Position numbers and translations under genes: made by a program. From IMG/VR virus record IMGVR_UViG_2778261303_000003: a DNA stretch of 11,130 nt, one strand, 5' to 3'. Within the stretch, counting starts at the first letter, position 1, and every line of letters starts with the position of its first letter. This stretch comes from a virus. Taxonomy: Duplodnaviria > Heunggongvirae > Uroviricota > Caudoviricetes. The notes below the pieces were generated by a model that saw only the letters and a list, made by a program, of their open reading frames with translations, did not search any database and had not been told where the DNA came from. Shown piece by piece: positions 1,493 to 5,801 of this stretch.

Positions 1493-1786
1493 ATGAAAAA
1501 AATGCTACTCGCTACTGCGCTGGCCCTGCTTATTACAGGATGTGCTCAACAGACGTTTACTGTTCAAAACAAACCGGCAGCAGTAGCACCAAAGGAAACC
1601 ATCACCCATCATTTCTTCGTTTCTGGAATTGGGCAGAAGAAAACTGTCGATGCAGCCAAAATTTGTGGCGGCGCAGAAAATGTTGTTAAAACAGAAACCC
1701 AGCAAACATTCGTAAATGGATTGCTCGGTTTTATTACTTTAGGCATTTATACTCCGCTGGAAGCGCGTGTGTATTGCTCACAATAA
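1493..1786 (+). CDS. bor: Bor outer-membrane lipoprotein (serum-resistance moron of lambda)
   Basis: 97-aa ORF MKKMLLATALALLITGCAQQ... with a lipobox (LITGC); essentially identical to lambda Bor as remembered; convergent with Rz as in lambda. Confidence 0.95.
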   Translation: MKKMLLATALALLITGCAQQTFTVQNKPAAVAPKETITHHFFVSGIGQKKTVDAAKICGGAENVVKTETQQTFVNGLLGFITLGIYTPLEARVYCSQ

Positions 1787-1792
1787 TTGCAT

Positions 1793-1818
1793 GAGTTGCC
1801 CATCGATATGGGCAACTC
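1793..1818. other. Perfect palindrome/hairpin (11-bp stem, 4-nt loop) between convergent bor and Rz
   Basis: GAGTTGCCCAT-cgat-ATGGGCAACTC read directly from the sequence; flanks are not T-rich, so it is not a classical intrinsic terminator. Confidence 0.5.
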
Positions 1819-2279
1819 TATCTGCACTGCTCATTAATATACTTCTGGGTTCCTTCCAGTTGTTTTTGCATAGTGATCAGCCTCTCTCTGAGGGTGAAAT
1901 AATCCCGTTCAGCGGTGTCTGCCAGTCGGGGGGAGGCTGCATTATCCACGCCGGAGGCGGTGGTGGCTTCACGCACTGACTGACAGACTGCTTTGATGTG
2001 CAACCGACGACGACCAGCGGCAACATCATCACGCAGAGCATCATTTTCAGCTTTAGCATCAGCTAACTCCTTCGTGTATTTTGCATCGAGCGCAGCAACA
2101 TCACGCTGACGCATCTGCATGTCAGTAATTGCCGCGTTCGCCAGCTTCAGTTCTCTGGCATTTTTGTCGCGCTGGGCTTTGTAGGTAATGGCGTTATCAC
2201 GGTAATGATTAACAGCCCATGACAGGCAGACGATGATGCAGATAACCAGAGCGGAGATAATCGCGGTTACTCTGTTCAT
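1818..2279 (-). CDS. Rz: Rz i-spanin (inner-membrane spanin subunit)
   Basis: Translation [45 protein letters not shown]... is near-identical to lambda Rz; the ATG at 2279..2277 overlaps the endolysin stop (ATGA). Confidence 0.95.
1877..2059 (-). CDS. Rz1: Rz1 o-spanin (outer-membrane lipoprotein) embedded in the +1 frame of Rz
   Basis: 60-aa [63 protein letters not shown] with a lipobox (VVGC) and proline-rich core; lies entirely inside Rz, as in lambda. Confidence 0.9.
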
Positions 2280-2773
2280 TGCTGACCCCACAAACAGATT
2301 TCACGCTCAATCTCACGACGAGTCATGAGACCTTTCCATTGCTTACCGCCAGCATATGTCCAGCGACGTAGCTGATCACATGCGCCTTTGATATCGCCCT
2401 GGTTTATTTTGCGAAGAAGCGTCGATGTTCTGAAATTGCCAGCACCCACGTTGTAAACGAATGAGTAAAGAGCGCCGCGCGTTGTTTCCGGTATATCGAC
2501 TTTGATGTACGGGTTAATTTGTCTGGCGACAGTGGCAAGGTCTTTATTCAAGAGTGCTTTGCATTCTGCTTTGGTATACGTTTTACCGAGCATGATGTCT
2601 TTTCCTGTATGCCCGTGACATACAGTCCATACACCAACAATATCTTTATATGGTATGTAGCTGACACCTTCCAGACCATCGTCACCACTCGGACCAGTGA
2701 TGAGCACAGACGCTATGGCAACAGCCCCACCACCAATAGCAGCTGCTACAGCCTTGCGTAATGATGGCGACAT
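2276..2773 (-). CDS. R: SAR endolysin, phage-21 R21-type lysozyme (T4-lysozyme-like muramidase with N-terminal signal-anchor-release domain)
   Basis: 165-aa ORF with a Gly/Ala-rich weakly hydrophobic N-terminus ([20 protein letters not shown]) followed by a catalytic E-x8-D-x5-T signature ([17 protein letters not shown]); its start overlaps the holin stop by one base. Confidence 0.92.
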
Positions 2774-2988
2774 TATTCACCTCTCGCAGCCTTACGCTTA
2801 TCTTCTTTAATCTTGAAATAAAGGTTTGTCAGGTACGTCAGCAGGCCAAATACCAGGCTACCCAGCACTCCAATTGCCGCCCACTGTGAGGGCGTGACTT
2901 TATCTAGCAGCTGTAAAAACCAGTACCCGGCACTACCTGCTGAGGTGCCATAGGCGACACCCGTTGTTAACTTATCCATGGATTTCAT
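2773..2988 (-). CDS. S: Pinholin, phage-21 S21-type, with dual-start motif (antiholin from Met1, holin from Met4)
   Basis: 71-aa [29 protein letters not shown]... with two transmembrane segments and a charged C-terminus; GAGGTGGGG Shine-Dalgarno upstream; M-K-S-M dual start as in S21. Confidence 0.9.
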
Positions 2989-3100: not shown

Positions 3101-3133
3101 AAAAAATGGAAAAACCCGCTCGACGGCGGGTTT
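3101..3133 (-). terminator. Putative intrinsic terminator hairpin (better on the - strand) between the porin promoter region and the holin
   Basis: AAACCCGC-tcgacg-GCGGGTTT stem-loop at 3112-3133; on the - strand it is followed by TTCCATTTTTT, on the + strand only by TTTAAG. Confidence 0.45.
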
Positions 3134-3561
3134 AAGCTGTGTGACGAAGTAACCACTCTTAACAGCATAACCAATTTTTTACGTACGTAAACCACTAAAT
3201 GATATTTGCGAGAATGCTACCGAGTATTGAAAACACCACTACAAATACATAAGCAAATCTCAACAAATAACCAACAAATAATTTCCAGCGTTATTTTTAG
3301 TCAATTTAAATTGAACCTTCAAATTATAGAGCACTTATAAATAACAGCCATTAATATAAATTGGCTAATAGATTTATTTTTATTCAGTCAAGAGCCATGA
3401 ATAGGATTCGATAGAAAAAAGTTCAGATAAAAATAGAGATCTACTTCACAAATCAAACGAGAAACCAAAACTTACATCTTGAAATATTCACATTGATTAG
3501 ATGAATATTTATCGCGCAGTGACATCATTTTTTAATAATAGTTCAAAAAAAAGGGCTCACG

Positions 3562-4644
3562 ATGAAAAAATTAACAGTGGCAATTTCTGCTGTAGCTGCA
3601 TCAGTACTGATGGCGATGTCTGCTCAGGCAGCTGAAATTTATAATAAAGACAGTAACAAGCTGGATCTGTACGGGAAAGTTAATGCTAAGCACTACTTCT
3701 CCTCTAATGATGCAGATGATGGTGATACTACTTATGCCCGTCTTGGCTTCAAAGGTGAAACCCAAATCAACGATCAACTGACTGGTTTCGGTCAGTGGGA
3801 ATATGAATTCAAAGGCAACCGCGCTGAATCTCAAGGTTCCTCCAAAGATAAAACCCGTCTTGCCTTCGCTGGCCTGAAATTCGGTGACTACGGCTCCATC
3901 GATTACGGCCGTAACTACGGTGTAGCATACGACATCGGTGCATGGACCGACGTTCTGCCAGAATTCGGTGGCGATACCTGGACCCAAACAGATGTATTCA
4001 TGACTGGTCGCACCACAGGTGTTGCAACTTATCGTAACAACGACTTCTTTGGTCTGGTTGATGGCCTGAACTTTGCAGCTCAGTATCAGGGCAAAAATGA
4101 CCGAAATGAAGTAACTGAAGCTAATGGCGATGGTTTCGGTTTCTCAACTACTTATGAGTATGAAGGATTCGGCGTGGGTGCAACCTATGCTAAATCTGAT
4201 CGCACTAATAATCAGGTTATCTACGGTAACAACGGTCTGAATGCTTCTGGTCAAAATGCTGAAGTATGGGCAGCTGGTCTGAAATATGATGCGAACAACA
4301 TCTATCTGGCCACCACCTATTCTGAAACCCAGAACATGACTGTTTTTGGTAATAACCATATTGCCAACAAAGCACAAAACTTCGAAGTAGTTGCACAATA
4401 TCAGTTCGACTTCGGTCTGCGTCCGTCCGTTGCTTATCTGCAATCTAAAGGAAAAGACTTGGGTGCTTGGGGTGATCAGGACCTGGTTGAATATATTGAT
4501 GTAGGTGCAACCTATTACTTCAACAAAAATATGTCCACTTTTGTTGACTACAAAATCAACCTGATTGATAAGAGCGATTTCACGAAAGCATCTGGCGTTG
4601 CTACCGATGATATCGTTGCTGTAGGTATGGTTTACCAGTTCTAA
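3562..4644 (+). CDS. nmpC: OmpC/OmpF-family general porin, prophage-encoded (NmpC/Lc-like moron)
   Basis: 360-aa ORF with a typical signal peptide ([23 protein letters not shown]), porin motifs throughout and C-terminal ...VGMVYQF; sits between Q and the lysis genes in the opposite orientation, as nmpC does in DLP12. Confidence 0.92.
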
Positions 4645-4832
4645 TTTGATTACTAAAAGATATGTTGTGGGAGGCTTTGCCTCCCCAACATATAAGTGGC
4701 TCCCTCAAGCCACTTCCTTTAGAAGCACAACCTTGCTTCTAACTATATAAACCTTCTGTTATATATTACCCTTTATTTTTGGGGGCGTTTCAACGCCCCA
4801 TTTTTAATAACTTTTAGTAAATAATTGGCATA
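4645..4832. promoter_or_regulatory. Q-to-porin intergenic region: expected site of the late promoter/qut/tR'-like element (- strand) and of the porin 3' UTR with a possible IpeX-like sRNA (+ strand)
   Basis: Two strong hairpins seen: GGGAGGC-ttt-GCCTCCC (about 4669-4685; on the - strand followed by ACATATCTTTT) and GGGGCGTT-tc-AACGCCCC (4782-4799; on the + strand followed by ATTTTTAA). Placement immediately downstream of Q matches the lambdoid late-control region; exact promoter boxes were not confidently identified. Confidence 0.45.
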
Positions 4833-5216
4833 TTAATTAGAGTTATTAACAACGATATCCATCTCTAACCGGATATCTAATGCCATTAACATCCCTTCAA
4901 TTATACCCTCAGCCTTCTGTAACCTTTTCCCGATATAACCATCAGAGCAGCAATGCTTACCTGCCAGTGACATGAATGTCATACCGACTACATAATAATC
5001 TACTAATAAATCGTGCAAATCGCTGTTGTTCTTTTTCAGACGGGCCATGCACCCGCAAATGATCATCGCGTCATCGTCACAACATTGCGGGCGAGATTTT
5101 ACTTTTGAAGGAATTAATCCCTTAAAACCGGCGGCAATGGACGACCAGGTCACATCTTCATGATTATTAGCCGCCCACGCTCCCCAACGCTCAAGAACCA
5201 TCTGAATATCACGCAT
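4833..5216 (-). CDS. quuD: Late-gene antiterminator Q (DLP12 QuuD / phage-82-like type)
   Basis: Translation [24 protein letters not shown]... with cysteine cluster ([12 protein letters not shown] ... HCCSDG); ATG at 5216 preceded by GGAG; the longer track ORF begins at an upstream TTG. Confidence 0.9.
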
Positions 5217-5301
5217 CAACTTACTCCACAAAAATCAGACCAGAACGCCAATTACAAGCAAAAATCAACAAAACAGTATTAGTTGATTGTTATCTCTGAC
5301 T

Positions 5302-5439
5302 TCATACTCCTGCTCCTGTCAGGGTTTTGGCGTAATTCTTCAGTATTCGGTAATCGGTCAAAACAGAACCGGGGAAACGATATAAGCGCAGGCGCACCCA
5401 GCGGCGGCGAAGACGCTCTGCCATATAAGACTCAAACAT
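5302..5439 (-). CDS. ylcG: Small basic protein YlcG-like (45 aa), function unknown
   Basis: Not in the ORF track (under 60 aa); hand translation from the ATG at 5439..5437 gives [45 protein letters not shown] then TGA at 5304..5302. Its start overlaps the rusA stop (TGATG), and it sits between rusA and Q as in DLP12. Confidence 0.6.
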   Translation of the reverse strand: MFESYMAERLRRRWVRLRLYRFPGSVLTDYRILKNYAKTLTGAGV

Positions 5440-5801
5440 CATTCATCTCCCAGTTCGGTGATGGTCAGTTCCAGCCTCCCACCTTTGGTAACAGGCATCT
5501 TCACAACGCGGTAATCAACGACCTGAGCATCATCCAGCCAGAAACCTGCTTTAGTGAGTGCGTCAAAAGCGGCTTTTTGCAGATTATCCAGGTCACGGCG
5601 ACGGCGATCCGGCATGTGGCACTCAATGCGGATTTTCACAGGCATAGCCAGGCCGATATCCAGCATTGCGTTTTTAATGATTCGGGCGACGTTATCGCGG
5701 TATGCCTGCCCTTCTGCGCTGATGTGCGTGCGCCCGCGATTATGCCGGTAGTAGCGGTTATTGCTCGGAGGCCAGGGTAATGTGATGCTGTAGGTATTCA
5801 C
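5439..5801 (-). CDS. rusA: RusA Holliday-junction resolvase (crossover junction endodeoxyribonuclease)
   Basis: 120-aa [29 protein letters not shown]... matching RusA; the initiation codon here is GTG (5801..5799), overlapping the stop of the ybcO remnant (GTGA). Confidence 0.93.

Follow-up and report, generated by a model that had tools for sequence, protein, structure and literature searches.

Sequence identity of a coliphage porin 3' untranslated region with ipeX and its predicted pairing with the ompC ribosome-binding site

IpeX is a small RNA (sRNA) of 167 nt from DLP12 that is transcribed from a porin promoter and later processed from a longer porin RNA (2025 review, PMC12197685). DLP12 and phage PA-2 are the sources of IpeX in the literature, according to which IpeX expression lowers OmpC and OmpF, not OmpA, through post-transcriptional repression. 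Here we describe the equivalent element in an 11,130-nt stretch of DNA from a virus of the Caudoviricetes (IMG/VR record IMGVR_UViG_2778261303_000003), hereafter called the window. In its 11.1 kb, the window covers the region from immunity to lysis of a lambda-like coliphage. Its nearest match is Escherichia phage ev243 (97.8% identity across 86% of the window), and the element lies in the spacer between a phage porin gene and the gene of the antiterminator Q. Both the porin moron of DLP12/PA-2-type phages and the IpeX 3' untranslated region (3'UTR) that it carries have been described before; what is new is a putative late promoter beyond the porin and a predicted match of IpeX to the ompC ribosome-binding site. 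The best overall explanation, to which we give a probability of about 0.8, is that the porin 3'UTR is an ipeX allele, that its block at 4750-4778 would pair with ompC and more weakly with ompF, and that the late operon is served by a separate pR' module.

The locus agrees with DLP12 and PA-2 in the position of IpeX right after the stop codon of an nmpC/lc-type porin, in its strand and in its terminator, and also in the flanking genes, which encode a quuD-type Q, an S21-type holin and a signal-arrest-release (SAR) lysozyme. It differs from DLP12 in that the porin is intact in the window, whereas K-12 nmpC is split by IS5. The 434B isolate of phage 434 (L003, 632-4223) has the K-12 form of the Q-porin region, with IS5 in the porin after codon 346; its record marks the region as non-homologous to 434, and the DLP12 Q-nmpC::IS5 segment was apparently acquired from the K-12 host. 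Among other sRNAs, CpxQ and SroC are likewise derived from 3'UTRs. IpeX resembles them in that its candidate seed lies just upstream of the terminator of the mRNA itself and in that, according to the literature, it is processed from a longer transcript, but its carrier is a phage moron and its presumed targets are host paralogues of the carrier gene. MicC and MicF are free-standing chromosomal genes for Hfq-dependent sRNAs, whereas IpeX is a product of a porin-mRNA 3'UTR.

Identity and fold of the porin 3'UTR

The porin gene is convergent with Q and divergent from the holin gene, as the first-pass annotation of this DNA had stated and as the strands of the open reading frames (ORFs) and the Pfam matches confirm. 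The genes on both sides of the spacer and the element itself are as follows.

3562-4644, plus strand: porin, Lc/NmpC type, 360 aa, a lysogenic-conversion moron (Pfam Porin_1, E = 1e-152)
4645-4805, plus strand: porin 3'UTR from the porin stop to the end of the terminator U-run, equivalent of the ipeX locus (K-12/PA-2 identity; covariance model match; fold z = -8.9)
4833-5231, minus strand: ORF of antiterminator Q, QuuD type, 127 aa from the ATG at 5216 (PF06530, E = 1e-53)

Window positions 4603-4900 are 96.3% identical to K-12. In an alignment with the DLP12 nmpC-quuD spacer of K-12 MG1655 (NC_000913), the spacer shows seven substitutions (4646, 4654, 4668, 4676, 4789, 4811 and 4822) and one 1-nt indel, and every one of these differences is confined to loops, a bulge or single-stranded positions. 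In phage PA-2 (J02580), the sequence that follows lc is 95.4% identical to the spacer. The stretch also lies on the same strand as, and 3' of, an nmpC/lc-type porin in a lambdoid Q-S region, and it ends in a Rho-independent terminator. By direct sequence identity, the stretch at 4645-4805 is an allele of ipeX, an element that has already been described. The first-pass annotation had suggested that an IpeX equivalent could be present and that alignment to the K-12 nmpC 3' region would tell. Because the spacer is the same sequence as both IpeX-defining loci, that idea was right, and the alignment (~96% identity) makes the case stronger than proposed: the stretch is the same locus as ipeX of DLP12 and PA-2 and not merely IpeX-like. 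No Rfam family matched the whole window at gathering thresholds, and 4560-4900 gave only chance-level Rfam matches up to E = 10; Rfam apparently has no IpeX model, so the identity had to come from alignment. The NC_000913.3 annotation carries no ipeX feature.

The element is common: some three quarters of the complete E. coli genomes carry it, with matches to the segment 4560-4900 in 4167 of 5426, and the features under these matches are always a porin and quuD. The porin element is present in at least 407 IMG/VR contigs, and a pattern scan for the element itself returned more than 119 IMG/VR contigs. When one genome per species was scanned with the same pattern, only E. coli was found, and a search of plasmids gave E. 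coli records only.

The spacer folds into a series of hairpins, numbered HP1 to HP5 from the porin stop.

4660-4693, plus strand: HP1, a long bulged hairpin of 8 + 7 pairs with one bulge and the loop UUU (fold)
4694-4715, plus strand: HP2, an 8-bp hairpin with the loop CCCUCA at 4702-4707 (fold)
4719-4742, plus strand: HP3, a 9-bp hairpin (fold)
4744-4765, plus strand: HP4, a weak hairpin of A-T pairs only (fold)
4782-4799, plus strand: HP5, the terminator stem, 7-bp G+C, GGGGCGT/ACGCCCC, with the loop UUCA (terminator scan)
4782-4805, plus strand: intrinsic terminator of the porin/IpeX transcript, HP5 followed by AUUUUU (terminator scan)

The plus-strand fold of 4645-4811 has an energy of -61.5 kcal/mol against -29.2 +/- 3.6 in dinucleotide shuffles (z = -8.9, 0/200), and the minus-strand fold of the same stretch gives z = -7.7. 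The two stable hairpins first claimed for the 190 bp after the porin stop are thus an undercount: the stretch does hold hairpins, four strong and one weak, and it measures 188 nt (4645-4832). The plus-strand hairpin and T-run placed at 4782-4805 were recovered by the terminator scan, with T5 at 4801-4805. The hairpin with a T-run on the minus strand is also real as a hairpin, but it occupies 4660-4693 rather than 4655-4685. On that strand HP1 is followed by CTTTTAG, with four T only (4658-4655), and the terminator scan did not call it.

Three lineages of the element were found. Lineage A is the common lambdoid form, whose members are 88-100% alike; lineage B comprises the 3'UTRs of nmpC in P7 and P1-like phages (~70% identity); and lineage C consists of two loci, L041 and L062 (~81% identity). 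A protein-based scan of viruses added only 99%-identical porins and no fourth lineage. HP1, HP2, HP3, an A/U-rich single strand and the terminator form a fold that is common to all three lineages (z = -8.9, -6.2 and -8.7). A covariance model built from the variants, which matches 4645-4805, was used for structural alignment. In this alignment, 97.2% of the paired cells hold pairs compared with 91.9% in shuffles, and 18 pairs are changed on both sides where 3.9 are expected (0/500 shuffles); when the partner columns are slid, pairing falls to 41-48%. L041 has five compensatory pairs, two wobbles and no broken pair among its 38 pairs, with four of the compensatory pairs and one wobble in HP1 and one compensatory pair in HP3. 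P7 has two compensatory pairs in HP2 and three in HP3. In its own fold, the outer stem of P7 HP1 has U-A, U-A replaced by C-G, G-C. HP5 keeps its stem among the alleles while its loop varies, and in L041 it has a U.G wobble that pairs on the plus strand only. A common A-to-G variant at 4723 in HP3 likewise retains a G.U pair on the plus strand. In total, stem transitions leave a G.U wobble on the plus strand at six sites and on the minus strand at three, counts that are not decisive for the strand. HP4 was considered as a conserved helix and rejected, since it is broken by a frequent variant at 4748 and is folded differently in P7 and L041.

The homology of P7 to the window covers 3499-4774, which takes in a short 5' leader, the porin and the complete 3'UTR, and the gene that follows the porin 3'UTR in P7 is ssb, not Q. 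The presence of porin and 3'UTR without Q in P7 indicates that the hairpins travel with the porin and not with the late-control region. Some E. coli chromosomes (L006 and L007) carry the porin and the 3'UTR at ~90% identity with no annotated Q, the next gene being ybcM; Q may be degraded there.

The inner part of HP1 in P7, AAGGGAGUGAUGUCACUGC (L005, 1571-1589), can form 18 contiguous pairs with the porin 5' leader GCAGUGACAUCAUUUUUUA (window 3516-3534) at -25.5 kcal/mol, which hints at a contact between the 5'UTR and the 3'UTR in the P7 nmpC mRNA as judged from complementarity. HP1 of the window has no such match to the porin 5' leader.

Predicted pairing with host porin mRNAs

The A/U-rich single strand upstream of the terminator contains a candidate seed.

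4750-4778, plus strand: candidate seed AACCUUCUGUUAUAU-AUUAC-CCUUUAUUU, A/U-rich, mostly unpaired and partly within HP4 (predicted ompC pairing)

Positions 4750-4764 of IpeX (AACCUUCUGUUAUAU) can pair with ompC -21 to -7 (AUAUAACAGAGGGUU) through 15 pairs, one of them G.U, and these cover the Shine-Dalgarno sequence GAGGG. Positions 4770-4778 (CCUUUAUUU) can form a further 9 bp with ompC -31 to -23 (AAAUAAAGG). The AUUAC between them is looped out, giving a total of 24 bp across -31 to -7. Folding of whole-length duplexes produced meaningless long duplexes, and windowed, accessibility-corrected scoring was used instead. The best windowed hybrid between IpeX and ompC reaches -24.3 kcal/mol against -15.4 +/- 2.1 for dinucleotide shuffles of IpeX (z = -4.2, 0/300), and no natural 167-mer of phage DNA reaches it (0/250). 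As many as 15 contiguous pairs with ompC are reached by 5 of 2000 shuffles. The start regions of ompA and of the phage porin itself give hybrid scores at or above the shuffle mean. The ompC leader is conserved at 99% identity or more in 5370 of 5426 E. coli genomes. We infer from these comparisons that IpeX carries a statistically clear antisense match to the ompC ribosome-binding site, contrary to published reviews.

The positive controls and IpeX were given one crude accessibility-corrected score throughout, by which the predicted pairing energies of IpeX are comparable to those of MicC and MicF.

MicC-ompC: -17.4 kcal/mol, published site recovered (MicC 1-17 with ompC -31 to -14)
MicF-ompF: -15.2 kcal/mol, published site recovered
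IpeX-ompC: -17.2 kcal/mol
IpeX-ompF: -10.4 kcal/mol

The likeness to MicC and MicF extends to the sequence of the seed. IpeX 4758-4778 reads GUUAUAU-AUUAC-CCUUUAUUU and the start of MicC reads GUUAUAU-G-CCUUUAUUG, so that the G of MicC is replaced by AUUAC, and MicC pairs with ompC -31 to -15, as IpeX is predicted to do. The AUUAC replacement also creates UUAUAUAUUACC in IpeX, a sequence with a single base difference from the MicF motif UUAUUUAUUACC; this 12-mer is present without any change in the P7 allele. The P7 allele can form 22 contiguous pairs with ompF -15 to +9 (z = -3.5, 1/200) and can also pair with the start codon region of ompC (7/200). Complementarity between the seed and a target initiation region beyond chance is thus found for ompC with the allele of the window and for ompF with the P7 allele. 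The differences from MicC and MicF are that the similarity is confined to a 12-17-nt seed, that the Rfam MicC and MicF models are unmatched, that the pairing of IpeX extends over the ompC Shine-Dalgarno sequence, and that this pairing is a prediction which reviews deny. Of the parts of an Hfq-binding 3' module, IpeX has the U-rich stretch UUUAUUUUU and a G+C hairpin, but its tail has only five U. The 197 loci examined contain 47 distinct 3'UTR alleles, in which 41 of 167 positions vary, and the longest invariant stretch of the 3'UTR (4753-4772, 20 nt) is the core of the seed.

A mechanism can be proposed on this basis. The porin transcript would carry IpeX at its 3' end, and processing would release it. 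The block at 4750-4778, just 5' of the terminator, would be its active part and would pair with the ompC leader from -31 to -7, masking the Shine-Dalgarno sequence; a weaker pairing of the same block with the ompF ribosome-binding site (-15 to +9) is also predicted. Translation initiation would then be blocked, as with MicC and MicF, while HP1 to HP3 may act as stabilising and processing structures. The start region of the phage porin has no match to the seed, so the phage porin would escape. We lean, with somewhat better than even confidence, towards IpeX being an ordinary antisense sRNA with a composite seed, in which MicC-like GUUAUAU...CCUUUAUU flanks MicF-like UAUUACC, that occludes the ompC site and, to a lesser degree, the ompF site; in P1/P7 the allele would be retuned to ompF, and one transcript would swap the host porin for the phage porin.

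Several points weigh against the antisense pairing or against the conserved fold. In the window allele, the match to ompF -15 to +9 (UAUUACCCUU with GAGGGUAAUA plus flanks) is not significant (z = -1.5, 27/300 shuffles, 19/250 natural controls). The invariance of the 20-nt stretch is only suggestive, with about 0.1 such runs to be expected by chance as estimated from the site density. The seed lies partly in the weak A-U hairpin HP4, and opening it costs ~7-9 kcal/mol. The tail of five U is short for an Hfq-dependent sRNA; P7 has seven. The structural alignment is model-fitted, contains one spurious minus-strand row, and has P7 HP1 and HP5 out of register, and P7 HP1 was therefore read by hand from its own fold. 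There are only three deep lineages, so that the covariation stands on few independent events. In the literature, the mechanism of IpeX is said not to involve base pairing (PMC3617542), and its regulation is said not to rely on complementarity alone (PMC12197685).

Such statements lead to a rival view, which we consider doubtful though the strongest of those weighed here, that IpeX acts without base pairing, by protein titration or through envelope homeostasis via its hairpins, and that its match to ompC is incidental, a result of A/U-rich sequence or of common ancestry. The denial of base pairing in reviews, the description of the effect on ompC as Hfq-independent, the short U-tail and the invariant HP2 loop, a possible protein-binding or kissing site, all speak for it. 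However, the 24-bp ompC match is reached by none of 300 shuffles and none of 250 natural 167-mers, falls on the Shine-Dalgarno sequence, shares positions with the validated MicC site and occupies the most conserved unpaired block, and the diverged P7 allele retains complementarity to the porin start regions in another register. In HP2, the loop CCCUCA stays the same in all three lineages while the stem below it changes. This loop is complementary to a UGAGGG that occurs in the ompF Shine-Dalgarno region and in an upstream motif of the ompC leader, and it could provide another contact or bind a protein.

It is rather improbable that the 3'UTR is a cis element only, whose hairpin stack and terminator keep 3' exonucleases off the porin mRNA and insulate the porin and Q units, which are convergent, from each other, with no trans role at single copy. 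Strong hairpins do follow the stop codon directly, with a terminator at the end, the porin and Q genes are convergent, and the original IpeX phenotype came from multicopy clones (PMC3617542). However, stabilising hairpins leave the conservation of the unpaired A/U block and its ompC match unexplained. A second point also counts against a purely cis role. The loss of OmpC in PA-2 lysogens was reportedly ascribed by Castillo-Keller in 2006 to an lc transcript with the IpeX sequence. The 2025 review is consistent with this (PMC12197685).

Reviews rank IpeX as an exception among porin sRNAs for its supposed lack of base pairing, a view repeated for about twenty years, and the 24-bp match makes that claim testable. 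If confirmed, the antisense pairing of IpeX would be a clean case of a phage 3'UTR sRNA that silences host paralogues of its carrier gene. OmpC is a receptor for several phages, and the lowering of OmpC by IpeX may bear on superinfection exclusion.

The late promoter and the Q gene

The late promoter of Shiga toxin (Stx) phages is constitutive, and its transcripts are terminated in lysogens (PMC7547250). When the porin-holin intergenic region was searched against phages, window positions 3192-3110 (minus strand) gave 77-89% matches to hundreds of Stx phages. The matching 933W segment is annotated with the end of Q, pR' (20666-20693), qut (20707-20714) and a terminator (20726-20748). The corresponding features of the window, together with the gene they precede, are as follows.

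3164-3191, minus strand: pR' homologue, -35 TTTACG (3191-3186), 16-nt spacer, -10 TATGCT (3169-3164) (alignment to 933W pR')
3143-3150, minus strand: position equivalent to qut, ACTTCGTC here and ACATTGCC in 933W (annotation transfer by alignment only)
3101-3133, minus strand: intrinsic terminator of the late leader upstream of the holin, AAACCCGCCGTCGAGCGGGTTT followed by TTCCATTTTT (terminator scan; homologous to the first 933W terminator after pR')
2773-2988, minus strand: holin, S21 type, the first late lysis gene (PF04971, E = 2e-35)

A conserved block, TAAGAGTGGTTAC, lies upstream of the qut-equivalent position on the same strand, and K-12 DLP12 has an identical pR' segment upstream of essD. 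The window segment 3191-3101 (minus strand) thus aligns with pR', qut and the first terminator of 933W, and it resembles the pR'-tR' leaders of 933W, H-19B and Sakai, the source of StxS, whose Q is of the same type. In the Stx phages pR' overlaps the end of Q, whereas here a porin cassette of 1.64 kb lies between the two and the C-terminus of Q is replaced. The part of the 258-nt leader that gives StxS is not present in the window; the homology ends after the first terminator, and no StxS homologue is therefore claimed.

The Q protein of the window is 79% identical to 933W Q and 82% identical to H-19B Q over ~125 aa. It diverges after ...RLEMD and ends 17 residues before the 144-aa H-19B Q. 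The pR' spacer holds the stop codon of the ancestral Q: the last ancestral codons and the stop (GGT TTA CGT ACG TAA) persist there, 1.64 kb away from the end of the present Q gene (4833-4860). The ancestral Q end within the pR' spacer makes the porin cassette look like an insertion into the 3' end of Q. On this alignment, the simplest reading is that the cassette (~3193-4832) sits between a 3'-truncated Q and the promoter that belongs to that Q. The late operon most likely has a pR'-qut-terminator module of its own at 3191-3101 (minus strand). This assignment leans on a 933W annotation that is itself marked 'putative', which tells against it.

The first-pass annotation had held that late transcription must cross the whole porin antisense to reach S. 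This is not supported, as the pR'-qut-terminator homologue lies between the porin and the holin. This pR' segment falls in the interval from the porin start to the holin, which allows late transcripts to begin past the porin, and since Q acts in trans at pR', they need not cross it. Nor would the minus-strand 'terminator' at HP1 be needed as tR' with a late promoter beyond the porin. A consensus scan detected no sigma-70 promoter in the porin-Q spacer, and no combination of promoter and terminator that would make a late leader was found on the Q strand there. A weight-matrix scan offered TTGAAA-19-TAATAT as a pR' within the spacer; this candidate was ruled out, its -35 lying in the terminator loop, which varies among alleles, and the homologous pR' being found at 3191-3164.

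It is very unlikely that the hairpins serve the minus strand as first proposed, with the spacer as late leader (pR', pause site and tR'), HP1 and its T-run as a Q-overridden terminator and late transcription running antisense through the porin: the generic cassette order of Q, pR', pause element and terminator, the CUUUUAG that follows HP1 here (CUUUUUCG in K-12) and the good minus-strand fold (z = -7.7) fit this picture, but the pR'-qut-terminator homologue of phages with the same Q type lies beyond the porin, no conserved promoter was found in the spacer, and the P7 hairpins show compensatory changes with no adjacent Q or late operon. A different role for HP1 on that strand can be offered as speculation, namely that early rightward transcripts read through Q into the porin antisense and that HP1 with its short T-run stops unmodified polymerase.

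If pR' does lie beyond the porin, the moron would be an insulated insert between Q and pR' and not an obstacle within the late operon. Such a placement would alter the modelling of porin expression in lysogens and of lysis timing.

Other genes and minor observations

The remaining genes were called from the ORF list and Pfam, as were those above.

1493-1786, plus strand: Bor
1818-2291, minus strand: Rz
2276-2773, minus strand: lysozyme
5439-5801, minus strand: RusA

The porin protein shares 90% identity with PA-2 Lc and 82% with P7 NmpC, and its differences from Lc are concentrated in a small number of gapped, variable segments. ORF1 of the PA-2 record, which runs antisense across the porin 3' end, was not treated as a gene, as it has no counterpart of 50 aa or more in the window. 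Several E. coli genomes contain 66-70-nt matches to the 3' end of Q (window 4831-4900) at 82-84% identity, and these fall under an IS200/IS605 transposase annotation or under no feature. Two CRP sites are annotated upstream of lc in the PA-2 record, and a simple offset from the start codon places them at about 3137-3157 and 3433-3453 of the window. The first of these positions would overlap the start of the late leader, and a TCACA half-site is found at window 3445-3449.

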